Part shown: piece by piece, positions 1,470-17,018 of the stretch
How positions within the stretch are numbered: the first letter of the stretch is position 1
Layout: each line of letters begins with the position of its first letter
Source: Spirochaetia bacterium
GTDB lineage: Bacteria; Spirochaetota; Spirochaetia; UBA9216
Reading direction: 5' to 3'
Assembly (NCBI GenBank): GCA_963677925.2
Contig: CAXXYH010000003.1
Span: 1,472,001-1,536,000, forward strand
DNA: 64,000 bases
Made by a program: the position numbers and the translations under genes
The notes under the pieces: generated by a model
The model's input: only the letters and a program-made list of their open reading frames with translations
The model's database searches: none
Told to the model about the DNA's origin: nothing

Positions 1470-1540
1470 GATACTATAAATATAAGTAATAATTTGTTGA
1501 ATACCTTCAGTTCATCATCGAATCACACAGGTATGTTTTT

Positions 1541-2782
1541 TCAGCCCTCAAACTTTTCCCGGTTTATCCACAGACCTAAAGCAGGGTTTGGAATGAAGTA
1601 AATTACTTCTCCATCGGGCATTGTATTGTAACCGTATACAAGCTTTTGCGGGTCATATAATTTCACCATTTCATCATAGGATGCACTCTTAAATCCGATA
1701 TTATCAATTTCCTTCTCTGTAATATTCTTCACAGCGTAGGTAATTGAAAATCTGTCATCAGAAGAGCCGTGTATAAGATGGGCGGCAACTCCGGCATTAC
1801 CTGCAAGATCGCGGTTGTTCTTGAACTCTTCGAGGGTATTTACTCGGCCACGGTATCCGTATTTCCTGATAAGTTCGTCATTCTGAGGATCCTCACCGAA
1901 TTTATCAACACCGGGAGCAAGAACCAGCAGTTCGCCGCCATCGGCAATAGCCATACGGGTACGGTAAATACTCTTGTTCCCAAGCCAGGTGCTTTTAAAC
2001 TCTTTCGGATCAAGATACACAACACACTTCTGTATGCCGTGATCAACAAAATCAATATTCTTCTCCTGTGACAGAGCTACCGCGTCCTCCAGAACCTTTC
2101 TGGTATTGCCTATGAAAAAGCCATGGGTTTCAATATCTCCCTCCGGTGCAGTACAGACTGTGAGAGCAAACCATATCGGAAGTTCGGACAGAAACTCTTC
2201 AAGGGCATAGTCAAAGACCTTTCTGACGGGAGTAAAATCCTTGCCCATCATCTTTTCCATTCCGTATACCGCACCGACCATATGACTTTTATTGATCATG
2301 TCTGCTCCGCCGACCCCGACAAAGAGATTCTTTGCATGGTTAGCCATACCAATTACTTCATGCGGAACCACCTGCCCCACCGAAAGAATCAGGTCAAACG
2401 ATGGATCAATGACAAGCCGGTTAACCTGTACTGATATGCCTTCAGTCCAGATCCCGTCGGTAGCTTCACTTAGAAATGAACCGGGCACTTCACCGATAGT
2501 TTCAACATCGTTTCTCCAGTCATGAACCACAAAACAGGAATGCGGAATATCACCGTACATTTCACTGAGTTCTTCTTCAGTCATTGCAACATGGGTACCA
2601 AGGGCTTCAAGTATTTTTACTTCACAGCCCCGATCTGAAAGCCAGTGGTAGGCACAGTTGCATATATACCCTGCATTTGAAAAATAGCGGGTAAAATCCG
2701 GCCCTACAAGGAGAACTCTTTTGAGTTCTCCCTGCGAAGCAAGAAATGATTCAATTTGATTTTTGATTTCTGTATTTGTCAT
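1541..2782 (-). CDS. LarA/lactate racemase-family (nickel-pincer) 2-hydroxy-acid epimerase, probably GntE-like aldonate 2-epimerase
   Basis: Motifs GPDFTR, ALGTH, PHEVIGMANHAK. Start reassigned to the ATG at 2782 (MTNTEIK), 4 nt after the gnd stop; the longer ORF overlaps gnd. Confidence 0.8.
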   Translation of the reverse strand: MTNTEIKNQIESFLASQGELKRVLLVGPDFTRYFSNAGYICNCAYHWLSDRGCEVKILEALGTHVAMTEEELSEMYGDIPHSCFVVHDWRNDVETIGEVPGSFLSEATDGIWTEGISVQVNRLVIDPSFDLILSVGQVVPHEVIGMANHAKNLFVGVGGADMINKSHMVGAVYGMEKMMGKDFTPVRKVFDYALEEFLSELPIWFALTVCTAPEGDIETHGFFIGNTRKVLEDAVALSQEKNIDFVDHGIQKCVVYLDPKEFKSTWLGNKSIYRTRMAIADGGELLVLAPGVDKFGEDPQNDELIRKYGYRGRVNTLEEFKNNRDLAGNAGVAAHLIHGSSDDRFSITYAVKNITEKEIDNIGFKSASYDEMVKLYDPQKLVYGYNTMPDGEVIYFIPNPALGLWINREKFEG

Positions 2783-2786
2783 AATA

Positions 2787-4241
2787 TTAAACATTGTATG
2801 TGGAAGCCGAGGTGCTTCCGCCGTGCCCGGTCCAGTTTGTATGAAAAAACTTTCCCCGTGCTTCATCAAGCCTTTCGTAGGTATGGGCGCCGAAATAATC
2901 CCTCTGAGCCTGAAGCAGGTTGGCAGGGAGCCTTTCGCATGTGTAGCCGTCGAAGTATGACAGAGCTGCTGCGAATGCAGGCACCGGAACACCGCAAAGC
3001 ACAGCCTGGGAAACAACCCTGCGCCATGGTTCAAGAAGCGATTCCATCACGCCCTTAAAGTAGGGATCAAGCAGAAGGTTTGTAAGTTCCGGATTACTGT
3101 CGAAAGCCTCTTTGATCTTCCCCAGAAATACCGAGCGGATTATACATCCGCCCCGCCACATGAGGGCAATGCCGCCGTAATTAAGGTTCCATTTGTATGT
3201 AGATGCAGCTGTCCGCATCAGGCTGTAGCCCTGAGCGTATGAAATTATCTTTGATGCATACAGTGCACTTTTAATATCAGCAATAAACTGCTTCCGGTCA
3301 CCGCTGAAGACTGATTTCTGCTTTCCCGAATATTCCCGTGCAGCCTCAACACGTTCATCCTTGATTGCCGACAGGCAGCGGCTGAAGACACTCTCACCAA
3401 TCAGCGTAAGGGGAACGCCTTCATCAAGCGCTGTAATCCCGGTCCATTTACCGGTTCCCTTCTGCCCTGCCGTATCAAGTATTTTATCTACTATAGGGTT
3501 TCCGTCGGTATCCTTGTATGCTAGAATATCACGGGTTATTTCAATCAGGTAGCTGTCAAGCTCGGTTTCGTTCCACTGCTTAAACACCTCATGCATCTCA
3601 TCGGCACTCATTCCAAGCAGGTCTTTCATAAGCTGATAAGCCTCGCAGATAATCTGCATATCACCGTACTCAATACCGTTATGAACCATCTTCACAAAAT
3701 GACCGGCACCGTTTTCACCGACCCAGTCGCAGCATGGCGAACCGTCTTCCACCTTCGCAGAGATTGCCTGAAGGATTGGCTTAACTGACGGCCATGCCGA
3801 CGGGCTGCCGCCGGGCATTATGCTCGGCCCCTTTAACGCACCTTCTTCACCGCCGGAAACACCGCTTCCTATATAATAAAGCCCCCTGCTTTCCACATAT
3901 TCAGTTCTTCTTATTGTATCAGGAAAGTGGCTGTTGCCTCCGTCGATGATAATATCACCAGGTTCAAAAACTTCCAGAAGCTGGTCTATAAGTTCATCAA
4001 CCGGCTTACCGGCCTTAACCATCATCATAACTTTTCTGGGTTTTGCAAGATTATCAGCAAGCTCGGAAAGACTGTGAGTTCCAATTATATTCTTTCCCTT
4101 AGCCCTGCCGTTTACAAAATCATCAACCTTACTTGTAGTACGATTGTAAACAGCAGCAGTGAAGCCCTTCGATTCCATATTCATTACCAGGTTCTCACCC
4201 ATAACAGCGAGACCGATAAGACCGATATCAGCTTTTTTCAT
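2787..4241 (-). CDS. gnd: 6-phosphogluconate dehydrogenase, decarboxylating (NADP+)
   Basis: GLAVMG, SGGEEGA, KMVHNGIEYGDMQ, GQKGTG, QAQRDYFGAH motifs. Confidence 0.98.
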   Translation of the reverse strand: MKKADIGLIGLAVMGENLVMNMESKGFTAAVYNRTTSKVDDFVNGRAKGKNIIGTHSLSELADNLAKPRKVMMMVKAGKPVDELIDQLLEVFEPGDIIIDGGNSHFPDTIRRTEYVESRGLYYIGSGVSGGEEGALKGPSIMPGGSPSAWPSVKPILQAISAKVEDGSPCCDWVGENGAGHFVKMVHNGIEYGDMQIICEAYQLMKDLLGMSADEMHEVFKQWNETELDSYLIEITRDILAYKDTDGNPIVDKILDTAGQKGTGKWTGITALDEGVPLTLIGESVFSRCLSAIKDERVEAAREYSGKQKSVFSGDRKQFIADIKSALYASKIISYAQGYSLMRTAASTYKWNLNYGGIALMWRGGCIIRSVFLGKIKEAFDSNPELTNLLLDPYFKGVMESLLEPWRRVVSQAVLCGVPVPAFAAALSYFDGYTCERLPANLLQAQRDYFGAHTYERLDEARGKFFHTNWTGHGGSTSASTYNV

Positions 4242-4244
4242 AAT

Positions 4245-5321
4245 TTACCTCTTTACCCGGGCATTGCCCTTGTAGATACTCCATACCTGCTCTTCATCAG
4301 CCGGAGTTCCGTAATCATCCAGAACTGAAGCGGCAAGAACGCCGGTAGCCCAGCCGAACTGTAACCACTTTTCTTCACTCCAGTTCCTAAGGATAGCATA
4401 AAGAAGGCCGGCAACAAAGCCGTCACCGCCGCCGATTCGATCAAGTACCTGTATTTCCCTGGGTTCTTCCACATGCCAGTTTTCCCCGGCAAGTACAAGC
4501 GCCCCCCACATATGCTGGTTAGCATTCAAAACCTGTCTGAGTGTTGTGGCATAAACCTGCGCACCGGGAAACTGCTTTTTAACTTCAAGAACCATCCCCT
4601 TGAATGAATCAATCTTTTCCCCCAGATCCGTACCGCCGGCCTCCGGGCCTTTCACTCCAAGCGCAAGCTGAAAATCTTCTTCATTGCCGATTAAAATATC
4701 CGCATATGATGCAATCTCGGTAAAGCTTTCCCTCAGTTCTTTCTCACGGCCTTTCCAGAAAGAAGCCCTGAAATTTAAATCAAAGGAAATAAGAGTACCG
4801 CTCTCTCTGGCAGCCCGTGCAAGCTCAAGGCAAAACTCAGTGGTTTCCGCACTCATTGCAGCAATAAGCCCTGAAAGATGAAGAATCCTCACACCTTCCT
4901 CCCCGAAGATCCTCTTTGTATCAAAATCTTTGATATTAAGAGTTCTTCCTACTTCCCCGGCCCTGTCGTTCCAGACCCGGGGCCCGCGTAAACCGTATCC
5001 GGAGTCGGCAATATTAAACTGGTGCCTCACGCCCCAGGGCCCTTCCTGCTCTACTTCGGGTCCTTCAAATTCTATATTGCGGAAACGCAGTTCACTTTTA
5101 ATAAACTGGGAAACCGGGCTGTCCTTAACAAAAGCGGTCAGAACCTTGGTTCGAAGACCAAGCGCTGCAGAGACATTAAGAACATTACTTTCGGCGCTGG
5201 TTGACTGCATCTGAAACATCCGGCTTGTATGAACCGGAAGCCTGTCTGCAGGGGTGATGCGCACACCTATACTGGTCGGGCAAATTAAATCGTATTTACC
5301 CGTAGTTTTGAGTTTAAGCAT
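4245..5321 (-). CDS. PfkB-family sugar-acid kinase (KdgK-like; gluconate kinase candidate)
   Basis: FDLNFR, GNEED, DRIGGGDGF motifs. Start at ATG 5321 after an AGGAGA RBS. Confidence 0.88.
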   Translation of the reverse strand: MLKLKTTGKYDLICPTSIGVRITPADRLPVHTSRMFQMQSTSAESNVLNVSAALGLRTKVLTAFVKDSPVSQFIKSELRFRNIEFEGPEVEQEGPWGVRHQFNIADSGYGLRGPRVWNDRAGEVGRTLNIKDFDTKRIFGEEGVRILHLSGLIAAMSAETTEFCLELARAARESGTLISFDLNFRASFWKGREKELRESFTEIASYADILIGNEEDFQLALGVKGPEAGGTDLGEKIDSFKGMVLEVKKQFPGAQVYATTLRQVLNANQHMWGALVLAGENWHVEEPREIQVLDRIGGGDGFVAGLLYAILRNWSEEKWLQFGWATGVLAASVLDDYGTPADEEQVWSIYKGNARVKR

Positions 5322-5346
5322 AATTTTCTCCTTAGTTATAGGATAT

Positions 5347-6423
5347 CTATGGATTAAAAAACTTGATGCAGACGGGAGAACCCGTATTCCAATCGTGCAA
5401 TTTTTCAAGCTGCCCGTCAGAAGCAACTCTGAATACTGTAATCAGATCACTGTCCTGATTACCAACCAGAAGATGGGTTCCGGCCGGATCTACCGCAAAA
5501 TTCCTAGGAGTTTTACCACCGCATGGGGTTCTGCCTATCAGTGCAAGATCACCGGAACTGTCTATCGCATAGCTTACAATACTGTCATGGCCCCGGTTTG
5601 AAGCATAAAGCTTTTTTCCGTCAGGGGTAAGATGCAGATCAGAACAGATATTTTCACCATTAAAATCATCCGGAAGCGTTTCAACAACCTGTTTGAAAAT
5701 AAGAGTCCCGTTCTCACATGTATAATGTATAATCCGGGAACTGATTTCGTTAATAAGGTAGAAATGCTTTCCGTCCTTACTGAACTCTCCGTAGCGGGGA
5801 CCGCTTCCGGCGGCAACTTCAATGCTCTTCGTTTCATCAGTCGAAATCATTCCATCTTCTATTTTATACGCAATAACCTTATCCAGACCTAAATCAGGAA
5901 CATAAAGCAGATTATTTTCGCTGCTGAATATACAGCTGTGGGCATGAGGGCCTGTCTGCCTGACGGGGTGAACACTGCTTCCGCGATGCTGAAAAATCGA
6001 TCTGCTGTCAGCTTTCACATCACCTTCCTGTTCAAGTGAAAAGGCAGTAACTGAACCGCTTGCAAAATTTGATATAGCAATAAAACTGGAGTCAGGTGAA
6101 ATCTCAAGATGACAGGGATCTTTTCCGCCTGCGTTCCATGTTCCTTCAACAGACATCGAAAAATCATCAGCATAGGAAAGCTGTGTAAGCCCGCCGCCTT
6201 CTTCTCCTAGGTATTCTTTCATCTCATTTACTGCATATATCTTTTTATTTTTTTCGTCGATACAGAGAAAAGAAGGATTACGAATTTCTATCTCTTTAAC
6301 TATTTCAATTTTACCATTTTCAAAGGAGCAGATAGTAATTCCTTTCCCCTGGCCCTGGTATACCTCTCCAGTGCCGAATAAAATAGGTTCAGTGTATGAA
6401 CCTAATGCAAAATACTGTTTCAT
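5347..6423 (-). CDS. pgl: Beta-propeller lactonase (6-phosphogluconolactonase/aldonolactonase, Pgl/YbhE family)
   Basis: NPSF, PCH, PHAH, GSGPR, SNRGHDSI, GKTPRNF motifs. Confidence 0.88.
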   Translation of the reverse strand: MKQYFALGSYTEPILFGTGEVYQGQGKGITICSFENGKIEIVKEIEIRNPSFLCIDEKNKKIYAVNEMKEYLGEEGGGLTQLSYADDFSMSVEGTWNAGGKDPCHLEISPDSSFIAISNFASGSVTAFSLEQEGDVKADSRSIFQHRGSSVHPVRQTGPHAHSCIFSSENNLLYVPDLGLDKVIAYKIEDGMISTDETKSIEVAAGSGPRYGEFSKDGKHFYLINEISSRIIHYTCENGTLIFKQVVETLPDDFNGENICSDLHLTPDGKKLYASNRGHDSIVSYAIDSSGDLALIGRTPCGGKTPRNFAVDPAGTHLLVGNQDSDLITVFRVASDGQLEKLHDWNTGSPVCIKFFNP

Positions 6424-6435
6424 CTGCCGCCTCCG

Positions 6436-7383
6436 CTATATCTGACTATTCAGTTTATCAGTTATTTTAACAGCTTCTATTATGAACCGGTCGCGTTTTT
6501 TCATATCATCATCAATACTTCTCTGACTCCAGTCATAAAAACCTTTTCCTGTGCCGGCTCCCAGATCTCCGCGCTCAACCATCTCAGAAATGTATGAGCT
6601 GGCATGTTTATCAGCATTAATTCCCGGAAGTACAGTCTGCTGAACCGAAAGCCCGAGATCTGTACCGATCGCATCAAGATGCATAAGAGGGCCCCACACC
6701 GGAAATCTCATAGCCATTCCTGCTGCAATAGCGGTATCAACATCCTCTGCCGTCGCAAGCCCGCTGGCTACTATATCAATTGATTCCCTTATTATAGCCT
6801 GAAAAACCCTGTTTGCAAGCTGTCCCGGAAGATCCCGCCGTACCAGGACTGGAGACTTCTTCCATTTTTTCAATTCATTACGGACCTTTTCCGCAACGGC
6901 AATATCAGTCCGGTCGCCCACAACAACTTCAACAAGCGGAACAAGATGTGCGGGAAGCCAGAAATGAGTTGTGACCGTACGCTCAGGATACACACATTTC
7001 TTACTTATATCGGTTATCCTGAGTCCGCTTGTATTGCTGCAAATTGCAACTTCAAGAGGAAGTATCGCATCAAGCTGAGCAAAAAGCTCCTGCTTAGCCT
7101 CAACTTTCTCAACTATGGCTTCTATTACCATGAAGGCTCTGTCCGCTGCTTTTATAATATTAGTACTTGTTTCAATCAGATCAAAGGCCGCTTCAGCCTC
7201 TGCACTTGAATTAAGCCCGTTTTCTTCTCTTAACCGGATACAGGCAAAAGCTTTTTCCTTACCTGCAGCCACTTTCTGCTCATCTACGTCAACAAGAATG
7301 GTTTTATTACCAGCCAGAGCGCTCATTGCACCTATGCCGCTTCCCATCATGCCTGAGCCGACAACTATTACACAGTCTCTCAT
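6436..7383 (-). CDS. 3-hydroxyacyl-CoA dehydrogenase-family NAD-dependent oxidoreductase (L-gulonate 3-dehydrogenase-like candidate)
   Basis: GSGMMG, EAIVE, SNTSG, THFWLP, GTGKGFYDW motifs; located in a sugar-acid operon. Confidence 0.85.
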   Translation of the reverse strand: MRDCVIVVGSGMMGSGIGAMSALAGNKTILVDVDEQKVAAGKEKAFACIRLREENGLNSSAEAEAAFDLIETSTNIIKAADRAFMVIEAIVEKVEAKQELFAQLDAILPLEVAICSNTSGLRITDISKKCVYPERTVTTHFWLPAHLVPLVEVVVGDRTDIAVAEKVRNELKKWKKSPVLVRRDLPGQLANRVFQAIIRESIDIVASGLATAEDVDTAIAAGMAMRFPVWGPLMHLDAIGTDLGLSVQQTVLPGINADKHASSYISEMVERGDLGAGTGKGFYDWSQRSIDDDMKKRDRFIIEAVKITDKLNSQI

Positions 7384-7400
7384 TTATTTAAATCTCCAGA

Positions 7401-8424
7401 TCAGTCTTCCATCAAAAGGACCACACGCCCCTTTGCTTCCCCGGTCTTAAGCATATTAAGCCCGCTGTTTATATCTTTAAAAGGAATTGTTTTAAAGATA
7501 TAAGGAACAATTTTTCCTTCTTCCACAAACTTGATAACCTCTGACAAGTCCTGCCGAGTCATTCCGCGAATTCCAAGAATCTCTTTTTCAAACTTCATTA
7601 CATCCTGAAAATCAGCTTCAAAAAGCGGATCATTATAACCTGCTACAATCACTTTTCCACCGGGACAAATCAACCGTAGAGAATCGTTAATGGAGGTTTT
7701 TATGCCGATGTTATCAATCACAACATCACACATATCCCCGCCAGTCAGCCGTACTATTTCCTCATACAGATCCTGCTCTTTGGTATTTATAACAGCATCG
7801 GCACCCATTTCAAGAGAAATATCAAGCTTTTCCTGCTGCCGGCTTGTAGCATAAACTTCTGCTCCGAACAGCTTTGCTATCTGAATAGCGTTCATACCAA
7901 GCCCGCCTGTACCAAGAACAAGTACACGATCTCCGGGTTTTACCATGCCGCGGTTTTTCACAGCGTTATACATACAGCCTACGGCATCTGTAATGCTGGT
8001 CATCTGGTCGAAGGGGACCGAATCTGAAATCTTAAAAGCATTATGCTCCGGAATTACGCAGTACTGAGCGTGTGAACCGTCACGTTCAAACCCGACACGT
8101 ACAAGGTTACGGCATAGATTACTGCGTCCGCTTAAACAGTACCTGCAGGTACCGCAGGTAATGTCTATTGCTCCGACAACATGATCACCGACTTTAACGC
8201 TGCTGACCTCACTTCCGGTTTTCTCTATTACACCGGCCATTTCATGGCCTGGTGTATACGGAAGTCTGACAGTGCCTATCATACCATCCTGAATATGGAT
8301 ATCTGAAACACAAAGACCGCTTGCCTTAATTTTAACAAGGACTTCATAGGGTCCCGGCTCCGGGATTTTTTTTTTCTTCTATTATAAGGGGCTGCCCGAA
8401 CTCTTTCAGAACAGCCGCCTTCAT
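7401..8424 (-). pseudogene. Zn-dependent (MDR) dehydrogenase split by a +1 frameshift in an A10 tract (pseudogene, phase-variable gene or sequencing error)
   Basis: GGAGTG-ATG at 8424 reads MKAAVLKEFGQPLIIEEKK and then stops after NPGAGTL. Removing one A from 8366-8375 restores IPEPGPYEVLVKIKASGLCVSD...GHE and joins the 7401-8282 ORF. Confidence 0.85.
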
Positions 8425-8441
8425 CACTCCATTACCTTCAA

Positions 8442-9536
8442 TCATGGATTTATTACCACCTTCAGTGAACCGTCTTTCTTGTTTTCAAATAGTTCAACAG
8501 CCTTCTCATAATCCTCGAGAGGAAATCTGTGGGTGATAAGTTTTTCTCCGTCTATCGCACCGGAAGAAAAGAATTTTAAAACTTGTTCCGATACATTTGG
8601 ATTAGCCTTTGAGCCTGTAATATGTATTTCATTAAAGTTCACTGTATTGGCAGGAATAAGCACCTCATCATCGTGGTAAGTTGCGATAATAGCTACAGAA
8701 CCTGTTTTGCGGACCATTTTACATGCCTTCATAGGAGAATCCTTCGCGCCTGAACATTCCATAACTTCATCAGCGCCGACTCCGCCTGTCAGTTCAAGTA
8801 CACGCTGTACGGGATCTTCCTTTTCAAAATCAATGCAGACATCAGCTCCCAGTTCCCTTGCTTTTTCAAGCTTGGCTCCGCGGCCGATCATGATAACCTG
8901 TCCTGAGCCCAGAGCCTTGCATTCCATCATTGCACTCAGACCGATAGCACCGGGACCTATTACCACACTTGTTCCTCCGGGGGTGACACCGGCCAGCTCT
9001 ACTCCATGGAAAGCTACGCCGGCACAGTCACACATTGAAGCAACATCATAGCTCACATTATCAGGTATTTTGTGAAGAGAACTGGTCTTGTAAACATTGT
9101 ATTCAGCATTTGCACCCTGCCAGTAAAATCCGTAATGACGGTGACCGGTATCAAGACCTCCGTCCTGTCCGTCTTTTCCGTAATCAAGGCATACTGTATA
9201 ATGCCCCTTCTTGCAGTTATCACATTTACCGCAGCCGACATGAGCCTCTCCGGCAACCCGGTCGCCGGGGGCGAAATCCTTCACGCCCTCTCCAAGAGCA
9301 ACAACCTGGCCTGACCATTCATGCCCCATTATAAAAGGATAATAAGGAGGCCAGTTGGCAAAACTGTATCCGCCGTGAATCATCTTCGGATCTGAACCGC
9401 AGATAGCTACAGATTTAATACGGCACAGTACCTCTCCCGGTCCTGGCTTCGGAACCGGAACTTCTGCTAATTCAAGTTTATCATATGCCACAAGTGTCAT
9501 TGCGTTCATTTTTTCAGGTATTTTAAAAGTGTCCAT
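8442..9536 (-). CDS. Zn-dependent dehydrogenase (sorbitol/L-idonate/threonine dehydrogenase-like MDR)
   Basis: CGSD, GHE, structural CGKCDNC...C and GPGAIG motifs. Confidence 0.92.
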   Translation of the reverse strand: MDTFKIPEKMNAMTLVAYDKLELAEVPVPKPGPGEVLCRIKSVAICGSDPKMIHGGYSFANWPPYYPFIMGHEWSGQVVALGEGVKDFAPGDRVAGEAHVGCGKCDNCKKGHYTVCLDYGKDGQDGGLDTGHRHYGFYWQGANAEYNVYKTSSLHKIPDNVSYDVASMCDCAGVAFHGVELAGVTPGGTSVVIGPGAIGLSAMMECKALGSGQVIMIGRGAKLEKARELGADVCIDFEKEDPVQRVLELTGGVGADEVMECSGAKDSPMKACKMVRKTGSVAIIATYHDDEVLIPANTVNFNEIHITGSKANPNVSEQVLKFFSSGAIDGEKLITHRFPLEDYEKAVELFENKKDGSLKVVINP

Positions 9537-9537
9537 T

Positions 9538-10314
9538 TTAATCCTCTAATTTATCTTTTCCGTAAATATTTTTGACATATTTCTGCTTTTCCAATGATTT
9601 AACCTCTTCGGCAGAATGTGTCCTGGTGAATTCCAGATAATCCTTAACTCTGAGGACAAGGCTTTCCAGATGCCGATCCATCATATAAGCAGCCTCGTCA
9701 GGCTTATGCTCCTTGATACATCGGAATATCATATAATGGTAGAAACTCGAGTCTTCAACATCAGGTTTATAATAAAGAAAGCTCTCCATTTTTGATGTTG
9801 ATATCCACTTAATTAATTCCAAAAGACTTACAAATATCTCATTTTTTGATGCAACAGCAATTTTCACATGAAAATCACTGGTAAGATTTGCAAAGTCATG
9901 GCTGCTTGTTGCTTCTCTCTGAAGTTCCTCAAAATAGTGATCCATATCACGTATGTCTTCTTCAGTTGCATTTATAGCAGCCTGTCTTGCTGAGGCCATT
10001 TCAAGACCGCGTCTGAATTCCATTAAACCGACAAGATCGTTTTCATTCAGAAGGACGGAAGGAACCATATTATTCAAATACATCTGTGTTCCTATTTCTT
10101 TCAGAAAACTCCCCTCGCCTCTTCTAGTTTCAACTATTCCAAGAACAGCCAGCTTATTCAGCACAGCACGGATTGTATTTCTGCTTACACCGAACATATC
10201 CTTAAGTTCGTTTTCTGAAGGAAGCTTGTCATTTGGAGAATACTTACCACTGAGAAGCAGAGTTAAAACATCATTGTAAACAGTCTCAGTGATATTCGGT
10301 TTTGAACTAGCCAT
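9538..10314 (-). CDS. GntR/FadR-family transcriptional regulator (FCD domain)
   Basis: KLPSENEL...GVSRNTIR...RRGEGSF winged HTH; DFH...ASKNE FCD domain. Confidence 0.95.
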   Translation of the reverse strand: MASSKPNITETVYNDVLTLLLSGKYSPNDKLPSENELKDMFGVSRNTIRAVLNKLAVLGIVETRRGEGSFLKEIGTQMYLNNMVPSVLLNENDLVGLMEFRRGLEMASARQAAINATEEDIRDMDHYFEELQREATSSHDFANLTSDFHVKIAVASKNEIFVSLLELIKWISTSKMESFLYYKPDVEDSSFYHYMIFRCIKEHKPDEAAYMMDRHLESLVLRVKDYLEFTRTHSAEEVKSLEKQKYVKNIYGKDKLED

Positions 10315-10320
10315 TATTTC

Positions 10321-11355
10321 CTACCTCTTTTTGATATACTTCTGAGTATCAACTGCTATAGCAAATATGATTATCATACCCTTTATAATAAACTGAATGT
10401 AGGGATTAATATCCATATATACCAGACAATAGCTTAACATCTGAAATATCAAAACGCCAATAACCACACCGCTTATTTTTCCAACTCCGCCTCTAAGAGA
10501 AACACCGCCTACAACACATGAGGCAATAGCATCAAGCTCATAGCCTTCTCCAAGCATGTTGGTGGCACTTCCTGTTCTTCCGGCATCAAGGAATCCAGCG
10601 AATGCATATGCGAGTCCTGCAATAACATAAACAAGCATGATTACACCTCTGGTATTTACTCCGGAGACAATAGCTGCTTCCTTATTACCGCCGACTGCAT
10701 ACATATTTCTTCCAAGGGTTGTCCTGTTCCAGAAAACCCAGAATATTATTGTAAGCAGCACAGCATAAATGACAATGTAAGGCAGGCGGAAACTTCCAAG
10801 CTGTATGGCCCCCTGTGCAATATTTGTAAATCTGGTATCATAGCCGCCGATCGGTGATGAATGATTGACATAGTCAAAATAGAGAGACATTGAACCGTAT
10901 ACAATCATAGACATTCCAAGAGATGCTATAAACGGAGCAATCTGCAGCTTTGATATAAGCAGTGAATGAATCACTGAAAAAATCAGACAGACAACTACCG
11001 CTATGAGCAGAGGGACTATTATAGGAAGCGCTGCCATTTCAGGAAAAATTCTCAATGCGTAATCAGGCTTCTGAAGAAGAGAAGCACATATTACTCCCGC
11101 AATACCAACCATCCTGCCTGCAGATAAATCGGTACCTCCCAATATAATTATACCTGCAACTCCGAGAGCAATTACAAGCTTGGGCGCAGCCTGCTGAAGT
11201 ATAAAAGTCGCATTTCTGACGCTCAGTATTGACGGTTCCAGAATTACTATAGTCAGAATAACCGCCACAAGAACGAGATATATTGCATTCTGCATAAACC
11301 AGTGGCGGGTAGCTGTTATGCTATCCTGATTAAGTCCTTTGATTTTCAATTCCAT
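10321..11355 (-). CDS. mglC: Sugar ABC transporter permease (MglC-like)
   Basis: GTDLSAGR, GGNKEAAIVSG, YELDAIASCVVGGVS motifs. Confidence 0.85.
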   Translation of the reverse strand: MELKIKGLNQDSITATRHWFMQNAIYLVLVAVILTIVILEPSILSVRNATFILQQAAPKLVIALGVAGIIILGGTDLSAGRMVGIAGVICASLLQKPDYALRIFPEMAALPIIVPLLIAVVVCLIFSVIHSLLISKLQIAPFIASLGMSMIVYGSMSLYFDYVNHSSPIGGYDTRFTNIAQGAIQLGSFRLPYIVIYAVLLTIIFWVFWNRTTLGRNMYAVGGNKEAAIVSGVNTRGVIMLVYVIAGLAYAFAGFLDAGRTGSATNMLGEGYELDAIASCVVGGVSLRGGVGKISGVVIGVLIFQMLSYCLVYMDINPYIQFIIKGMIIIFAIAVDTQKYIKKR

Positions 11356-11380
11356 ATTTAAACCTCTTAGTTCTCAAATC

Positions 11381-11782
11381 TTAACTGTTAACAAGCCCGG
11401 TCTCTACACAGAGATAAACCAGAGGTATATTTCCGGTATTGCGGATTCCATGAGAGCCGCCGCTGCGGATCAGAGCTATTGACCAGGGTTTAACAGGCAT
11501 TACTTTTCCACAGAGAGTTACCTCGCCCTCACCTTCAATTATCAGATAGAACTGTTCATTTCCCTCATGCGGATGTTCGCCGACCGAGCCCCCGACGGGA
11601 AGTGTTGTTCTGTGTACATAATGAAAATTTTCAGTACTCTCAGGGTTTCTCGGGCCGACAACAGGCATTTTTGCTTCATCACCGAAAAGTGTAACGTTTG
11701 CAATTGTACCGGCACCGTTTTCACAGTTTGCGACATCATATGCCGGGGCATCTTCAATATTTCTGTAAACAAATTTTTCCAT
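11381..11782 (-). CDS. Cupin-domain protein
   Basis: Cupin motif 1 (GEHPHEGNEQFY) and motif 2 (GGSHGIRN); AGGAGA RBS. Confidence 0.88.
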   Translation of the reverse strand: MEKFVYRNIEDAPAYDVANCENGAGTIANVTLFGDEAKMPVVGPRNPESTENFHYVHRTTLPVGGSVGEHPHEGNEQFYLIIEGEGEVTLCGKVMPVKPWSIALIRSGGSHGIRNTGNIPLVYLCVETGLVNS

Positions 11783-11818
11783 AATTACTATCTCCTAAAT
11801 TTTCAGTCCAAATACCTA

Positions 11819-13318
11819 TCACAGGTACTTTGCCGCCAGGGTCATTATTTTTTCCTGTGTACATTCTTTTGCATCAACTATTCCGGCGTTTTTGCCATTG
11901 CTCATAACCAGTATCCTGTCTGCAACACCAAGAAGCTCCGGCATTTCAGATGAAACAAATATAACAGCCTTGCCCTGCTTAGCCAGCTCTATCATGAGCT
12001 GATAGATTTCATATTTTGCACCTACATCAATTCCTCTGGTAGGTTCATCGAGCAGCAGGATACGGGGCTCTGTCAAAAGACATCGGCCAAGCAGAACTTT
12101 CTGCTGATTTCCGCCGGAAAGAGTGCTTATGAGAGTTTTGAGTGTTGCGGTTTTTATACGCATTGCCTTAACAGACCATTGTGTATTTTCCTCAACTTTA
12201 TTCATCGATATCAGACCGAATTTACCGCAGTTTTTTTCAATACTTGAAGAAACCGTATTCCATCTGATATCCATTTGAGGAAAAATCCCGGTTACCCTTC
12301 GTTCCTCGGTAACCATGGAAAGACCTGCACCCTTAGCATGTTTTCTCGATTTTAAAATATCTTTTCCATCAACATATACAGCACCGCTATCTACAGTTCT
12401 CAAACCGAAAATTGATTCAAGAAGTTCGGTACGTCCGGCACCTACAAGACCTCCGATTCCAAGAATTTCACCTGCACGAACTTCAAATGAAACATCCTTA
12501 ATCTTAGGTTCATAAACAGATGAAAGCCCCTCAATCCGAATAAGCGGATCGCCAATTTCCTTTTCCTTTGGAGGAAACCGGTTGCTAAGCTCACGGTTTA
12601 CCATAAGCTTGATGAGTTTGTTGGAATCAATATCACAAATATTCTCGGTTGCAACCCACTGCCCATCTCTGAGTACTGTAACCCTGTCGGATATGGCAAG
12701 AACTTCATCATTCTTATGGGAAATATAAATTATTCCGCAGCCGTCGTTTTTCAGTTTTCTGATTATATCAAACAGAGCCTCAGTTTCTTTTTCTGTAAGA
12801 GAAGATGTCGGCTCATCCAGAACAATGACTTTGGCATTATAAGAAACCGCTTTTACAATATCAGCCATCTGTTTCATTGAAACCGACAAATGGTTAATCT
12901 GAGTCCGCGGATCTATTTTCATATTAAATGAATTGATGATCTGCTTTGTATCTTCATACATTTTTTTATCATCAACAAATATCCCCTTCCGCGGATACCG
13001 GCCTAGCCAGATATTATCCATAACATTCCGCTGGGGTACCTGTTCAAGTTCCTGGTGAACCATAGCTATTCCGGAACGTAAGGCCTGGCTTGGATTATCA
13101 ATTACAGCCGGTTCACCGTTTAAAAAGATCTGCCCCTTATCCATTTTATTGATGCCGAAAAGGCACTTCATAAGGGTTGATTTACCTGCGCCGTTCTCAC
13201 CCATCAGGGCATGAACTTCCCCTGGCCTTACATTAATCTTTACATCCTTAAGAGCCTGTACACCGGGAAAACTCTTGGAGACATTATTCATTTCAAGCAG
13301 GTATTCTTCGGTCTGCAA
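11819..13318 (-). CDS. mglA: Sugar ABC transporter ATP-binding protein (MglA-like, two NBDs)
   Basis: GENGAGKS, LSGGNQQK, DEPTRGIDVGAK motifs; TTG start after AGGAG. Confidence 0.9.
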   Translation of the reverse strand: MQTEEYLLEMNNVSKSFPGVQALKDVKINVRPGEVHALMGENGAGKSTLMKCLFGINKMDKGQIFLNGEPAVIDNPSQALRSGIAMVHQELEQVPQRNVMDNIWLGRYPRKGIFVDDKKMYEDTKQIINSFNMKIDPRTQINHLSVSMKQMADIVKAVSYNAKVIVLDEPTSSLTEKETEALFDIIRKLKNDGCGIIYISHKNDEVLAISDRVTVLRDGQWVATENICDIDSNKLIKLMVNRELSNRFPPKEKEIGDPLIRIEGLSSVYEPKIKDVSFEVRAGEILGIGGLVGAGRTELLESIFGLRTVDSGAVYVDGKDILKSRKHAKGAGLSMVTEERRVTGIFPQMDIRWNTVSSSIEKNCGKFGLISMNKVEENTQWSVKAMRIKTATLKTLISTLSGGNQQKVLLGRCLLTEPRILLLDEPTRGIDVGAKYEIYQLMIELAKQGKAVIFVSSEMPELLGVADRILVMSNGKNAGIVDAKECTQEKIMTLAAKYL

Positions 13319-13336
13319 AATGCACTCCTTTAAAAG

Positions 13337-13376
13337 TCGGTTTGCAAAATTCAGTCTCCCGAATTTTACAAACCGA
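13337..13376. repeat. Intercistronic inverted repeat (mRNA-stabilising or REP-like stem-loop)
   Basis: TCGGTTTGCAAAATTC-N8-GAATTTTACAAACCGA between the binding-protein and ATPase genes. Confidence 0.7.
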
Positions 13377-13405
13377 AAAAAATTGTTGTTAATTATAACT
13401 GATAA

Positions 13406-14452
13406 TTACTGAGCCAGCTTGTAGCCTTCAATGGCTTTATCAACATTTTCAATTGTTATCTTCTGTTCCGGAATCTTAACAATCTTGTCTACCATTTCCC
13501 ATTCAAGACCTTCATCTGCCGGTTTACCCTGAGCTACGTTCATTGAAATCTGAACAACTGCGCGGGCTGCATCATATGTACTTGTAAGAATTGAACCAAG
13601 CATAACACCGGATTTGATGAGCTCAGCAGTTTCAGGAAGTGCGTTAACACCGATAACAGGAACAGCTCTTTCTTCTGTGATAAGACCGTTGCCCCTGAGA
13701 GCTTCAACAGCACCAAGTGCCATAGCATCATTACTGCAGACAACCATTTCAATCTTGTCTCCGAATTTACCTATCCAGGAGTTCATAACTTCAACTGCTG
13801 TAGAAGTACTCCAGTTTCCAGGCTGAGTTGCAATCTGTTCTGCAGCGATTCCGGAATCATCGATGGCTGCGTAAAAACCGTTTGCACGATCGGTAGCATC
13901 ACTGTGTCCGGGTGAACCTGTCATAAGAACATACTGAAGAACACCGTCTCCGTTTGTGTCATATTTTGCAGAATCTTTATTCCATGCATCAGCTACCATT
14001 TCACCTTCAAGACGGCCCTGATAAAGAGAATCGAGACCAACATACCAGCACTTGTCATAACTGTTAAGAACTTCCATGGTAGGCATTCTGTTAAAGAATA
14101 CAATAGGAATACCTGCATTCCTTGCTTTCTCAACGATGGTATCACCGGCTGAAGAATCTACCGGGTTTACAGCGAGAACATCAACACCCCTGATGATCAT
14201 CGTATCAATTCGTTCTGTCTGTGTAGCCTGCTTGTTTTCACCATTTACCATCATGAAATCAAGCCCCGGGTACTTTTCAGCCATTTCATAATTAATACCG
14301 TTTCGGATATAACCGACAAAGGTATTAGCATAGTTGAAAATTGTAAAACCGATGAAAGGCCCGTCTGATGTTTCGGCCTCCTGGTCTCCTGATGCATGAA
14401 CAAAGCTCAGGCATGTTACTAGAACGAGCAGTACCATAATGAATCTTTTCAT
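13406..14452 (-). CDS. mglB: Periplasmic sugar-binding protein (MglB galactose/glucose-binding-like)
   Basis: Signal peptide MKRFIMVLL...HASG; Ca-loop DTNGDGVLQY; GHSDATDR; NDAMALGA. Start reassigned to 14452. Confidence 0.85.
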   Translation of the reverse strand: MKRFIMVLLVLVTCLSFVHASGDQEAETSDGPFIGFTIFNYANTFVGYIRNGINYEMAEKYPGLDFMMVNGENKQATQTERIDTMIIRGVDVLAVNPVDSSAGDTIVEKARNAGIPIVFFNRMPTMEVLNSYDKCWYVGLDSLYQGRLEGEMVADAWNKDSAKYDTNGDGVLQYVLMTGSPGHSDATDRANGFYAAIDDSGIAAEQIATQPGNWSTSTAVEVMNSWIGKFGDKIEMVVCSNDAMALGAVEALRGNGLITEERAVPVIGVNALPETAELIKSGVMLGSILTSTYDAARAVVQISMNVAQGKPADEGLEWEMVDKIVKIPEQKITIENVDKAIEGYKLAQ

Positions 14453-14479
14453 TATCTTCCCCCTAAATTTTTTTGAAAA

Positions 14480-14723
14480 ACCTGTCCCACAAGTCCAGTC
14501 CCAAGGCATAATATCTTAATTCATGCCCTCACTACTTGTAGTACAAGTTCTGCATAACAAACAGTTAAACACAGGTTTTTTCAGTCGTCAACATTTATTT
14601 TTAATGATTTTAGGTAGTTTTTTTTAAATATCTAATATTTTCTTATTTTTTCACTCTTTTACTTGTCCTACATCCTAGAAATTACATATATCAGGAACCT
14701 GTGGTACAACCTCTTGATATATG
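14480..14723. promoter_or_regulatory. Cluster of four FadR-type operators upstream of the Mgl-like operon
   Basis: ACCTGTCCCACAAGT 14480-14494, ACTTGTAGTACAAGT 14534-14548, ACTTGTCCTACATCC 14661-14675, ACCTGTGGTACAACC 14697-14711. Confidence 0.75.
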
Positions 14724-14751
14724 AACTGTATTTTTACATGTAAACACAGAA

Positions 14752-14778
14752 TTCAGGAGCAGCACAGCTGCTCCTGAA
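14752..14778 (-). terminator. Probable intrinsic terminator
   Basis: Perfect 12-bp stem TTCAGGAGCAGC-aca-GCTGCTCCTGAA just downstream of the 14796 stop; weak U-tail. Confidence 0.65.
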
Positions 14779-14795
14779 GATTCAAAATACTTGAA

Positions 14796-15908
14796 TCACT
14801 CCGGGTGACTGAGTCCCAGCGAAATATACATTTCATTAAAATAATCGATACTCACTTTTATCGAACCCCAGCCGTCACGGTTATAGGAACCGGGTGAATT
14901 ATCTTCTACAAGCAGCCACTCCAGACCATGAAATGCCATTGCCCTGAGAACCTCGTTCCATTCAATATCGCCCTGCCCGCATGCGGTTGTATAATAGCCT
15001 TCACAGTCAACATCCTTTGCATGAATAAGCCTGTATTGATCTCCATGTGCCCATAGATATTTTATAAGTCCTTCCTCACCAAGAATCTCGAAGGGATAGA
15101 TGGCTTCTAAACCTACATTTGGATGGACTGCATGCGATGTATCAAAATGCCAGAGAATTTCATCACCGAACTCATCATAAAGAATATCAAGCATATAGCG
15201 GCCGCCGTAAGAATCAACCGGGATCCATTCAAGTGAATGTGCATGAAAACCAACCTGAAGATCATATCCGTTCTTCCTGATCTGATCCTGCATATATCTG
15301 AACTTTTCAGCTACATCTACTACCCATGCAGACATCATTGACTGAGTCATCTGATCAAACCAGTTATATCCGGGAGCCAGACTTATATCAAGAGAAATAC
15401 CGTCTGCTCCAACCGCATCCAGATATTTGAATATTTCTGCAAGTTCTTTATCACTGTAATCCCAGGCTGTAACCCAGTGAGGTGAGATAATAGTAAGTCC
15501 AAGCTCTTCATTCAGAGCCTTCAATTCAGCAGCATCCATGTACCACCAGTTAGTATTGGCATGGTTCGGCTGATATCCCTTATACCCCATAGCAGCAATT
15601 CTTCGAAGCGTTTCAGTCAAAGCCTCCGTAACCGCTGCTTTTTCATCCATTCCCGAAGCCATATGAGCTTCCCGGATTGCATTGTACTCATTGCGAAGTG
15701 TATACAGCGTTACACCAATCTTTGGACCGTAAACTACTTCCTTCTCCTCAGCTTCCGAAGTTCCGGCGGCCGCGGCATTCGTACCGGATGTACCCGAATT
15801 ACTTGCCGACTGCTTAGTTTCTGTCTTCGTTTCCTCAGCTGTCCCTGAGGCGCAAACGAAGCTCAAGCTTGTAATCAGTACAAGCATGATCATTGTGAAC
15901 CTTTTCAT
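14796..15908 (-). CDS. Exported xylose-isomerase-like TIM-barrel sugar epimerase/isomerase
   Basis: Signal peptide plus Ala/Ser/Thr/Glu-rich linker; metal-site motifs GFHAH, HFDTSH, IHAKD, LLVED. Start at ATG 15908 after GGAGG. Confidence 0.8.
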   Translation of the reverse strand: MKRFTMIMLVLITSLSFVCASGTAEETKTETKQSASNSGTSGTNAAAAGTSEAEEKEVVYGPKIGVTLYTLRNEYNAIREAHMASGMDEKAAVTEALTETLRRIAAMGYKGYQPNHANTNWWYMDAAELKALNEELGLTIISPHWVTAWDYSDKELAEIFKYLDAVGADGISLDISLAPGYNWFDQMTQSMMSAWVVDVAEKFRYMQDQIRKNGYDLQVGFHAHSLEWIPVDSYGGRYMLDILYDEFGDEILWHFDTSHAVHPNVGLEAIYPFEILGEEGLIKYLWAHGDQYRLIHAKDVDCEGYYTTACGQGDIEWNEVLRAMAFHGLEWLLVEDNSPGSYNRDGWGSIKVSIDYFNEMYISLGLSHPE

Positions 15909-15936
15909 TAGTTCCTCCATAACTTTTTACACAAAC

Positions 15937-15951: not shown

Positions 15952-16016
15952 TGATTAAAAAAATAAGGTTTTTAATACACTTTTAACAACATGAAGTCAT
16001 GTTGTGGTTGAAAAGC

Positions 16017-16184: not shown

Positions 16185-17018
16185 ATGAATATCAGATACG
16201 CATCACCAACCTTTTTATTCAGGGATAAATGTCCAAAGCAGCTGGATAAAATAATGAAAATGCTCGGCTCCATCGGCTTTGACGGACTTGAACTATTCGG
16301 GATGTTCGGGTTTGAAAGCAGTGCTATAATGGATTTCTGCAAAGAAAGCAAACTGAAAATCGTCTGTGATCATATCCCGTATGATGAATTTTCTTCTGAT
16401 ACAGAAAAGTCAATAAAAGCAAGAACAGCTCTCGGGGCAAAATATCTGACAATTGACAGACTACCCCCTGATTGTCTCCCGGGAAGCCCCGGATTCGGCT
16501 CAGCGCTTAAGGAAATTGAACGAATCTCAGGCGTTTGCAAGGATCACGGAGTGCAGCTTCTGTATCACAATCACGGTTATGATCTTATAAACAAAATTGA
16601 CGGAATCCCGGCGCTGGATCTTATTTTAGACAATACAGATCCGGAATTGCTTAAATTCCAGCCGGATCTTGGATGGCTGGCCCTTGGCGGAGGAGATCCA
16701 TATGCCTATCTTGAAAAGTACAAAACAAGATGTCCGATAATTCACATGAAAGATTACTATGCAGCAGCTCCGACCCTCCTTGAATCACCATTTCCCCTGG
16801 GCAACAGCAGGGGCGGTGAAGAGTATAACTTCTTCGAGTTCAGACCCTCAGGATACGGCATAATGAACTTTCCAAAGCTAATGCCGCTGATTCTAGCCTG
16901 TGAACCTGAATGGATAACTACAGATCATGATCTTTCCTACGAACGGAATACATACGATGACATGAAGATGGGGCTGGACTACACTAAATATCTTGTTTCA
17001 ATCAGTAATATAAATTAA
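16185..17018 (+). CDS. Sugar phosphate isomerase/epimerase (IolE/XylA-like TIM barrel)
   Basis: GFDGLE, YHNH, QPDLGW, IHMKD, GYGIMNF motifs. Confidence 0.88.
   Translation: MNIRYASPTFLFRDKCPKQLDKIMKMLGSIGFDGLELFGMFGFESSAIMDFCKESKLKIVCDHIPYDEFSSDTEKSIKARTALGAKYLTIDRLPPDCLPGSPGFGSALKEIERISGVCKDHGVQLLYHNHGYDLINKIDGIPALDLILDNTDPELLKFQPDLGWLALGGGDPYAYLEKYKTRCPIIHMKDYYAAAPTLLESPFPLGNSRGGEEYNFFEFRPSGYGIMNFPKLMPLILACEPEWITTDHDLSYERNTYDDMKMGLDYTKYLVSISNIN

Follow-up and report, generated by a model that had tools for sequence, protein, structure and literature searches.

Here we report a comparative analysis of a twelve-gene run from a Spirochaetia bacterium that encodes a sugar ABC importer, three dehydrogenases, a lactonase, a PfkB-family kinase, a 6-phosphogluconate dehydrogenase (gnd) and a LarA homolog. 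The run lies in a stretch of 64,000 nucleotides, hereafter the window (positions 1,472,001 to 1,536,000 of contig CAXXYH010000003.1, assembly GCA_963677925.2; C3:1472001-1536000 in our numbering of the genome, which comprises 5.04 Mb in 4 contigs and is 99.63% complete). All twelve genes are co-oriented on the minus strand from position 14452 to 1541, and the gaps between them span 1 to 87 nt, with start codons and ribosome-binding sites read from the sequence. The gene set, its order and the coordinates had been proposed in an earlier description made from the letters alone (the sequence-only reading) and were confirmed by the listing of open reading frames (ORFs) and by Pfam and NCBIfam scans. 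That reading took the run for a single dedicated pathway of aldonate stereo-inversion. Judged by its conservation elsewhere, the run is two independently conserved modules, not one pathway that evolved as a unit: module A, from the importer to the lactonase, and module B, made of the kinase, gnd and the LarA homolog.

Module A begins with the gene of an MglB-like periplasmic sugar-binding protein (SBP) with a signal peptide (13406..14452; Peripla_BP_4, 177 bits), followed by an MglA-like ABC ATPase with two nucleotide-binding domains (11819..13318), a small single-domain cupin of 133 aa encoded between the ATPase and permease genes (11381..11782; Cupin_2, 53.5 bits), an MglC-like ABC permease (10321..11355) and a GntR/FCD regulator of the FadR type (9538..10314; GntR 67 bits, FCD 68 bits). 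Two zinc-dependent medium-chain dehydrogenases/reductases (MDR) come next, the first of the polyol/sorbitol-dehydrogenase type (8442..9536; ADH_N and ADH_zinc_N), the second split between two frames as assembled (7401..8424), with the same two domains on its 293-aa downstream part. The following gene (6436..7383) had been described as a HAD-family dehydrogenase, HAD being short for hydroxyacyl-CoA dehydrogenase; its product is a beta-hydroxy-acid dehydrogenase of the 3-hydroxyacyl-CoA dehydrogenase family (3HCDH_N 158 bits, 3HCDH 60 bits), here called HCDH. The module ends with a lactonase of the seven-bladed beta-propeller type (5347..6423; Lactonase PF10282, 309.6 bits). Module B consists of the genes for a putative hexonate kinase with a KdgK-like fold (4245..5321; PfkB 74 bits), a decarboxylating 6-phosphogluconate dehydrogenase (gnd, 2787..4241; TIGR00873 765.5 bits, cut-off 426.7) and the LarA homolog (1541..2782). 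As the sequence-only reading had stated, the run lacks a dehydratase and an aldolase, no Pfam domain of either kind having been found within it.

The LarA homolog scores 610.9 bits on the NCBIfam model NF052594 (nickel-dependent putative hexonate epimerase; cut-off 500), with the same result in the genome search, and at most 50.6 bits on the malate/lactate racemase and other LarA models, so that it is not a lactate racemase; racemization of lactate alone was an outcome that the sequence-only reading had named as fatal to its proposal. The protein aligns with the structure of GntE2 (4NAR) at E 1.9e-35, its PDFTR motif falling on D38/R41, GTH on the first His, PHEV on H154-E155, AK on K164 and KSH on H180. 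The residues reported for catalysis and for binding of the cofactor, a nickel-pincer nucleotide (NPN), are D72, H108, H174 and K298, and R75, K184 and H200, in LarA, and R41, K164 and H180 in GntE2 (PMC7583248; here and below, statements taken from published papers refer to the excerpts of them on which we draw). The homolog keeps the catalytic Asp/His/His/Lys and the NPN-binding Arg/Lys/His in an intact reading frame. Its WLGNK motif matches the group-18 rows in the supplement of Desguin 2020, and its PHEV and AAHLIHGS segments are identical to the published signature columns of that group, which are of GntE-type specificity. The GntE signature rule places E and V after the second catalytic His and A and H in helix 14 (PMC11770544), and the signature of group 18 was published as GntE-like E-V/W/A (PMC7583248). 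By its sequence, the protein is a member of LarA homolog (LarAH) group 18 of Desguin 2020, within the GntE branch, and is predicted to be a D-mannonate/D-gluconate 2-epimerase; it is called LarAH18 below.

Group 18 was hypothesized to epimerize hexonate, as groups 19 and 20 (GntE1 and GntE2) do, and the supplement labels 25 group-18 sequences 'G2E3'; among three genes on each side of group-18 members in 25 genomes, a short-chain dehydrogenase/reductase (SDR) was reported in 36%, gnd in 32%, a ribokinase-family kinase in 16% and UxaC in 12% (PMC7583248). All eukaryotic LarAHs belong to the GntE branch, and that of Phytophthora nicotianae was assayed in 2024 (JBC, PMC11770544) as a narrow-spectrum D-gluconate/D-mannonate epimerase. 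Since group 18 includes sequences of P. infestans and diatoms (PMC7583248), an assayed group-18 enzyme probably exists, a conclusion reached across two Phytophthora species and not by sequence comparison. In the excerpts of these two papers, D-mannonate/D-gluconate 2-epimerase assays are given for GntE1, GntE2 and the Phytophthora LarAH15, and for no bacterial member of group 18 (PMC7583248, PMC11770544).

Using the LarA protein as a query, we collected 80 LarAH18 loci from genome contigs, mostly from gut and rumen Clostridia with 64-72% identity, plus spirochaetes; the window proteins were searched over all 80 loci with tblastn, and neighboring genes were scanned against Pfam in ten of them. 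Both the kinase and gnd are present in 43 of the 45 loci with at least 5 kb of upstream sequence, the remaining two having gnd only in one case and the kinase elsewhere in the other, so the association of the LarA protein with these two genes is conserved, as had been proposed. The kinase copies (64-89% identity) adjoin gnd and LarAH18 in 51/80 loci. Hexuronate catabolism genes are frequent companions: in 35 of the 67 loci that reach 1.5 kb or more past LarAH18, UxaC follows it within 300 nt, and at least one gene of the set UxaC, UxuB/UxaB-like Mannitol_dh, UxuA or UxaE occurs in 46 of the 80 loci (the Mannitol_dh protein, of about 540 aa, in 13, UxuA in 5 and UxaE in 4). An SDR was found in 42/80 loci and a Cof-type HAD phosphatase in 38/80, including L019, L021 and L039 (e.g. 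L039:8120-9037), often between gnd and LarAH18 in Clostridia. Genes of module A, at a threshold of at least 50% identity, are absent from 78 of the 80 loci; one of the other two (L014) has all of them and the other (L015) has HCDH and the lactonase. Within the taxonomic order of the window's genome, a second LarAH18 subtype (43-51% identity) adjoins gnd together with a divergent SDR-UxaC pair. Taken together, these contexts characterize kinase-gnd-LarAH18 as a portable unit that would normally serve mannonate derived from hexuronates. A conserved gene neighborhood, for which the sequence-only reading had called, is thus kept for this trio, but not for the run as one unit, which splits into the two modules.

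The closest solved relative of the kinase is 2afb (E 5.6e-28). The assignment of this protein to the KdgK family was considered and rejected, as it scores 95, 44.9 and 29.1 bits on the respective models (cut-offs 440, 400 and 400), and the run contains neither an aldolase nor a dehydratase. The kinase is 31% identical to the other KdgK-like gene of its own genome, and at one locus (L021) the trio has a distinct KdgK-KdgA pair as its neighbor. The gnd of the run is likewise a second copy in the genome, its paralog (53% identity) being located at C4:845010-846506. Given the identity of LarAH18 and its conserved link to the kinase and gnd, the last steps of the route outlined in the sequence-only reading, namely C2 epimerization to gluconate, formation of 6-phosphogluconate and conversion to ribulose-5-phosphate, stand as the best reading of module B.

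The order of the first two of these steps could also be reversed. In such a kinase-first version mannonate would be phosphorylated by the PfkB protein, LarAH18 would act as a 6-phosphomannonate/6-phosphogluconate 2-epimerase, and the two would be the genes behind orphan activities of L. suebicus, in whose extracts mannonate is not epimerized without ATP (PMC6978723). The module-B kinase forms a PfkB clade of its own that always occurs together with LarAH18 and gnd, and the insertion of a Cof-type HAD phosphatase into module B at the 38 loci mentioned above also speaks for this order; however, the assayed enzymes of the GntE branch (GntE1, GntE2 and the Phytophthora LarAH15) epimerize free D-mannonate, and we consider the kinase-first order unlikely.

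A source of mannonate that does not involve module A is present in the window's own genome, which carries a DeoR-SDR-UxaC unit 26 kb away from the run and UxuA and UxuB on contig 4; KdgK and KdgA are also encoded elsewhere. In this unit (C3:1442735-1445913; L187:6736-9913) the DeoR regulator gene is divergent from the SDR-UxaC pair. In related genomes the same SDR-UxaC pair adjoins the second LarAH18-gnd copy, which the window's genome lacks.

Module A has a different distribution. As no close orthologs of HCDH were found in a sample of 401 genomes of the phylum, where the best match beyond the own genome is 38% identical, module A was followed in metagenome contigs, using HCDH as the query for 71 loci and then tblastn of the window proteins. 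These loci are unbinned contigs, many of them from gut metagenomes at about 76% identity. HCDH is followed by the lactonase in 57/71 loci; Zn dehydrogenase 1, the most conserved protein of the module (mostly 81-88% identical over the loci, with three diverged variants at about 50%), is present in 47 of the 49 loci with at least 2.5 kb upstream; and among the 35 loci with at least 7 kb upstream, 30 have the ABC ATPase and permease and 6 the cupin, which is 82-92% identical in L014, L116, L117, L151, L153 and L170. A kinase, gnd or LarA match occurs in none of the 71 loci, 31 of which reach at least 3 kb past the lactonase, and the sequence past the lactonase is unrelated or lies on the opposite strand. 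By these comparisons, the importer-to-lactonase block is a separate portable unit that ends at the lactonase. The 'pgl-kinase-gnd-larA' grouping of the sequence-only reading does not hold in respect of its first member, which belongs to module A (57/71 loci) and is absent from 78/80 LarAH18 loci.

A further member of module A lies outside the range covered by that reading. The gene at 16185..17018 on the plus strand, divergent from the run, encodes a xylose-isomerase-like TIM barrel (AP_endonuc_2 33.2 bits; weakly IolE-like, with 55.5 bits on the IolE model against a cut-off of 290) and is conserved with the cupin-containing form of the module. The closest copies of module A (L116, L117, L151 and L153; 68-89% identity) share this divergent gene; copies of it beside module A show 70-74% identity in L097, L116, L117, L151 and L153 and 47% in L155. 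On the basis of this co-occurrence, we assign the TIM-barrel gene to module A.

The proteins of module A indicate a class of chemistry and a class of ligand. The permease exceeds the cut-off of the MglC model (433.5 bits, cut-off 386), and the ATPase and the SBP fall below those of MglA (724 bits, cut-off 828) and MglB (287.8 bits, cut-off 420). The SBP aligns with the structure of the glucose/galactose-binding protein (GGBP; 1gca) at E 6e-73, and of 11 sugar-contact residues of GGBP, seven are kept, one is a Lys-to-Arg replacement and three are altered (D14N, D236N and N256T). The altered contacts speak against glucose and galactose and for some other ligand that is neutral or less basic-demanding, perhaps a lactone. 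For the cupin, no match to an NCBIfam family reached E 0.001. Zn dehydrogenase 1 has human sorbitol dehydrogenase as its best solved relative (E 6e-44) and reaches no NCBIfam equivalog (Tdh 207.7 bits, cut-off 458; IolM 204, cut-off 450; IdnD 88.8, cut-off 469), and the Zn dehydrogenases have weak Pfam matches to Glu_dehyd_C. The L-idonate (GntII) pathway failed as an explanation, the IdnD model giving 88.8 bits for the first and 88.7 bits for the second Zn dehydrogenase against the cut-off of 469; the lack of both an SDR and a P-loop gluconate kinase among the Pfam matches within the run also counts against it. An inositol-type reading of module A was rejected, as no IolM, IolO or IolE cut-off was approached. 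For HCDH, which reaches no NCBIfam equivalog, the better matches among solved structures are Hbd enzymes (E 7e-40), and lambda-crystallin, which is L-gulonate 3-dehydrogenase, aligns at E 3e-30 over the N-terminal 240 residues only; its first-ranked ESM Atlas cluster is automatically named 'putative L-gulonate 3-dehydrogenase', a lead only, as ten clusters score 0.97-0.98. The solved relatives of the lactonase include the periplasmic gluconolactonase PpgL. Its identification as a 6-phosphogluconolactonase of the Pgl/YbhE type was rejected, given scores of 138.2 bits (cut-off 500) and 129.9 bits (cut-off 370) and the fact that the gene travels with module A.

The two modules meet in the window with a gap of 25 nt, which contains a ribosome-binding site, between the stop of the lactonase gene (5347) and the start of the kinase gene (5321); no terminator-like site was detected at this junction by a scan that performs overall at chance level. 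The whole twelve-gene order recurs in G006 (L014/L097), a genome from another genus of the same family, with 76-95% protein identity and nucleotide synteny of 80% over window positions 1548-14601, and is therefore not a chance arrangement. In a genome of the same genus (G002), the copy is decayed (L099, corresponding to G002:C3:39000-58900): it is syntenic with window positions 1538-7315 and 21974-24000, and has lost the 14.7 kb in between (window 7316-21973), so that the importer genes and both Zn dehydrogenase genes are gone and the HCDH gene is truncated at its 5' end; the kinase gene is interrupted by a stop codon and lacks 315 bp, and gnd (98%) and LarAH18 (95%) are intact. In the phylum sample, the 21 other genomes that carry LarAH18 have no HCDH match above 38% identity. 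Since each half is kept without the other in far more places, the fusion is recent and local, being found in one bacterial family only. The tight junction, the retention in two genera and the decay on both sides in G002 suggest a functional coupling of module A to module B.

These distributions bear on two other explanations of the run. According to the first, all twelve genes would be obligatory parts of one stereo-inversion pathway for an unusual sugar such as L-gulose or L-gulonolactone, proceeding from aldose to lactone to aldonate, through redox inversion at C5 (or C3) and C2 epimerization to gluconate, and then to 6-phosphogluconate and ribulose-5-phosphate. It is consistent with the co-orientation of the genes and gaps of at most 87 nt, with the order kept in a second genus and with the membership of lambda-crystallin in the HCDH family and the automatic name of the nearest Atlas cluster; in addition, L-gulonate and D-gluconate differ, as we derive, at exactly C2 and C5, and there are published precedents for each inversion. 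Nevertheless, the conservation of the halves apart (module B in 0/71 module-A loci, no module-A gene in 78/80 LarAH18 loci) speaks against the proposal of a single dedicated pathway, as each half must function elsewhere with unlinked partners, and we regard it as improbable. According to the second, which we see as rather unlikely, the modules are merely neighbors: the product of module A would go elsewhere, for instance as a 3-keto-aldonate that is decarboxylated to a pentulose or as mannonate or altronate to UxuA/UxaA, and module B would serve hexuronate-derived mannonate from the SDR-UxaC pair 26 kb away. Module A indeed stands alone in all 71 metagenome loci, SDR-UxaC, UxuA, a UxuB-like gene, KdgK and KdgA are encoded elsewhere in the genome, and in relatives SDR-UxaC adjoins LarAH18-gnd; however, mere adjacency would leave unexplained the 25-nt junction that lacks a terminator-like site, the preservation of the fusion in two genera at 76-95% identity and the joint decay of both halves in G002.

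The explanation that we favor, with somewhat better than even confidence, is a transcription-unit-like string of two modules in which the product of module A feeds the GntE-type shunt of module B; we infer both the substrates and the coupling. A neutral hexose or sugar lactone would be taken up by the MglBAC-like importer and turned into an aldonate through oxidation or hydrolysis of the lactone and through keto-intermediate steps. In this spirochaete lineage the module-A set would have come to lie immediately upstream of module B, which would let the module-A product (in the simplest case D-mannonate or D-gluconate) enter the pentose phosphate pathway: LarAH18 would epimerize D-mannonate at C2, yielding D-gluconate, the kinase would phosphorylate D-gluconate to 6-phosphogluconate, and the dedicated Gnd copy would convert the latter to ribulose-5-phosphate and CO2. 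The presence of a lactonase in module A implies a lactone, which would enter by import or arise through an aldose 1-dehydrogenase. A stereochemically consistent candidate source is L-gulonolactone or ascorbate-derived keto-gulonate, which would pass through L-gulonate and D-fructuronate to D-mannonate. This scheme could give a role to every enzyme, by lactone hydrolysis, interconversion of 3-keto-L-gulonate and L-gulonate, and the conversion of L-gulonate through D-fructuronate to D-mannonate; even so, L-gulonolactone and ascorbate-derived ketogulonates are an unlikely substrate family for module A. Alternatives are the oxidation of glucose by way of gluconolactone or of mannose by way of mannonolactone, or a decarboxylating route to pentuloses. 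By analogy with known dehydrogenase pairs, we infer redox epimerization by the two Zn dehydrogenases. At a locus of rumen Clostridia (L067:4246-6286), an Ldh_2-family protein and a Zn dehydrogenase are encoded upstream of a kinase-gnd-LarAH18-UxuA string. The Ldh_2 family is that of 2,3-diketo-L-gulonate reductase, and the arrangement is a second, independent pointer to a gulonate-type feed into module B.

Both members of the Zn dehydrogenase pair described by the sequence-only reading are present, with the correction that the second is frameshifted as assembled: the opening 19 codons, read from 8424, and the remainder, which reaches 7401, do not share a frame. The break coincides with a homopolymer at 8366..8375 (T10 on the plus strand, A10 on the coding strand). 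In the related genome (L097) the ortholog is uninterrupted and lacks a long run of A at this site; in the window, A9 would bring the two parts back into frame. In the sole public sequencing run that holds this DNA, a separate contig assembly (Logan; depth about 9) has 2 bases fewer at 8366 and is also out of frame; over the 13.1 kb from 1500 to 14600 the Logan contigs show no other difference from the window, of which this run may be the own source. Because the two assemblies give lengths of 10 and 8, both of which break the frame, and 9 does not, the length of the homopolymer is uncertain; the frameshift is probably an artefact and the gene intact.

The supply of the nickel-pincer cofactor presents a separate problem. 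No match to LarC was obtained in the window's genome with TIGR00299 or PF01969, and the best matches to LarE and LarB (32.1 bits, cut-off 150, and 38.7 bits, cut-off 175) are below cut-off. The genome nevertheless encodes four full-length intact LarA-family genes (C3:1473541-1474782, which is window 1541-2782, C3:464164-465447, C4:738698-739990 and C4:865786-867072), one of which exceeds the LarAH6 malate racemase cut-off (548 bits, cut-off 500) and two more of which score 379-429 bits on LarA-family models. In the taxonomic order, LarAH18 is above cut-off in 9/11 genomes, and LarC was found in one of those nine. In the phylum sample, LarC is present in 145/401 genomes. Apart from the window's own genome, 21 genomes of the sample carry LarAH18 (E 1e-100 or better), and 14 of these have LarC; the seven without it include a closed, 100%-complete genome. 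In four LarC-negative carriers, two of them closed, LarB and LarE are also absent. The searches behaved as expected in a positive control (G357), where larB, larC and larE lie side by side, and in Thermotoga maritima, where LarC was found. The excerpts of three papers discuss only the reverse case of genomes that have LarBCE and no LarA (PMC7583248, PMC11770544, PMC11796402), and a search for literature on salvage of the nickel-pincer cofactor found none. The cofactor may come from other organisms or be formed or substituted by other means; alternatively, the LarA enzymes are idle, against which the conservation of the LarA-family genes argues.

In one form, the idle-enzyme alternative holds that LarAH18 is non-functional for want of cofactor and that module B acts as a gluconate kinase and Gnd on gluconate from module A, made for example from glucose through gluconolactone. 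To the missing LarB, LarC and LarE it can add the closeness of the SBP to GGBP (E 6e-73), the existence of MDR-type glucose dehydrogenases together with the weak Glu_dehyd_C matches seen here, and the relationship of the lactonase to PpgL. We nevertheless consider it very unlikely, as LarAH18 has an intact frame with every catalytic and cofactor residue in place and shares 89-95% identity with its orthologs in two other genomes; the other LarA-family genes are also intact, one above the malate racemase cut-off, and the lack of LarC in 8/9 LarAH18 genomes of the order looks like a maintained function with an outside source of cofactor. More speculative, and put forward here as a tentative possibility less probable than not, is the combined proposal that LarA enzymes work in these bacteria without own nickel-pincer biosynthesis, the cofactor or a precursor being scavenged like a vitamin or else made or replaced by novel means, and that module A represents a catabolic route not described so far and frequent in gut metagenomes, the fusion revealing its product.

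Several points weigh against the coupled two-module explanation that we favor. None of the three module-A dehydrogenases reaches an NCBIfam equivalog cut-off, and the substrate is not derivable from sequence. The coupling of A to B is drawn from adjacency within one bacterial family. If the A10 frameshift were real, one dehydrogenase would be dead. As LarB, LarC and LarE were not found, the epimerase may be without cofactor, unless it is acquired. Finally, cell extracts of L. suebicus phosphorylate mannonate first, and epimerization acts on the resulting 6-phosphomannonate (PMC6978723), so that the order of steps in module B may differ.

Among known systems, module B most resembles the GntE route of T. 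maritima (LarAH20/GntE2, gluconate kinase and Gnd), a prediction of Rodionova 2012 cited in PMC6978723 and PMC7583248, the latter of which showed the epimerase activity of GntE2. There, too, a C2 epimerase of the LarA family, a kinase and gnd are linked and lie among hexuronate genes, mannonate is predicted to pass through gluconate and 6-phosphogluconate to ribulose-5-phosphate, and the epimerase has the same catalytic and NPN-binding residues. In contrast, the epimerase belongs to group 20 in T. maritima, where NF052594 remains below cut-off, and to group 18 here; T. maritima has LarC, whereas no NPN biosynthesis genes were found here; and the trio is fused in the window to a sugar importer and oxidation module, not to UxaC/UxuB. 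The kinases would also differ, the Thermotoga GntK being presumably of the FGGY type and that of the window of the PfkB type. The run's protein fits the published LarAH group 18 (PMC7583248; NF052594) by score and by signature residues. The pathway of L. suebicus, with a kinase for mannonate and a 2-epimerase for 6-phosphomannonate (Valk et al. 2020, PMC6978723), likewise leads from mannonate to 6-phosphogluconate and, by Gnd, to ribulose-5-phosphate without a dehydratase or aldolase, but its kinase acts first, and it is known from activities in extracts.

For module A, the chemistry proposed for the Zn dehydrogenases resembles routes in which dehydrogenase pairs invert stereocenters of aldonates through keto intermediates, yielding mannonate or gluconate. 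Haemophilus influenzae converts L-gulonate through D-fructuronate to D-mannonate with GulD and UxuB (PMC5788505), and the fungal D-glucuronate pathway proceeds from L-gulonate through 2-keto-L-gulonate, L-idonate and 5-keto-D-gluconate to D-gluconate (PMC4870679, PMC5306355, PMC5814732). As described in these excerpts, neither route has a LarA enzyme, the uptake system of H. influenzae is a TRAP transporter, and the fungal C2 inversion occurs via free 2-keto-L-gulonate, unlike in the scheme proposed here. The importer shares with Mgl of Escherichia coli its three-component architecture, a permease over the MglC cut-off and the similarity of the SBP to GGBP; it differs in the SBP and ATPase scores under the equivalog cut-offs, in the D14N, D236N and N256T changes at the sugar contacts and in the cupin gene inserted in the operon. 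The gluconate/pentose-phosphate end of the run is therefore of a known, predicted kind, and its front is a separate uncharacterized module. The sequence-only reading had not recognized the combination as a described pathway; the A-B fusion is seen only in this family, the context of the trio is already in print (PMC7583248), and redox inversion has the precedents given above.

The fusion hints at what the dehydrogenase/lactonase/importer module, recurrent in many contigs from human gut and sediment, may do: if module A feeds LarAH18, the kinase and Gnd, its product should be mannonate or gluconate. The PfkB kinase and LarAH18 are candidates for orphan steps that join hexuronates to the pentose phosphate/phosphoketolase pathway without net redox cost, a route of this type being relevant to the fermentation of pectin (PMC6978723). 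The retention of LarA-family genes in genomes that lack LarB, LarC and LarE raises the question of where their cofactor originates.

The likely upstream boundary of the unit is a terminator-like hairpin on the minus strand at 14752..14778 (12 bp stem and T tail), a consensus match only, located between the SBP gene and the gene of an exported TIM-barrel protein. In the region scanned, promoter and terminator predictions are at chance level (32 promoters against 31.0 expected, 14 terminator-like sites against 11.6 expected), and no Rfam family reaches its gathering score in the window. No RNA dataset covering window positions 2500-9600 was listed, the sole public match being the DNA contig set that is possibly the window's source.

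The gene beyond the hairpin (14796-15920, minus strand) encodes a protein of 374 aa whose signal sequence is lipoprotein-like and which weakly matches (21 bits) the xylose-isomerase-like TIM barrel; it matches no NCBIfam family, and an exported member of this family is unusual. Its membership of the unit was considered and rejected: it is absent from the syntenic locus L097 of G006, had no counterpart at any searched locus and has the terminator-like hairpin at its 3' side. Positions 17095-24000 of the window contain a second sugar ABC system (a binding protein, two permeases and an ATPase), a metallo-beta-lactamase-fold protein and a GntR/FCD regulator that is 38% identical to the regulator of the run, and the remainder of the window is dense in minus-strand ORFs.

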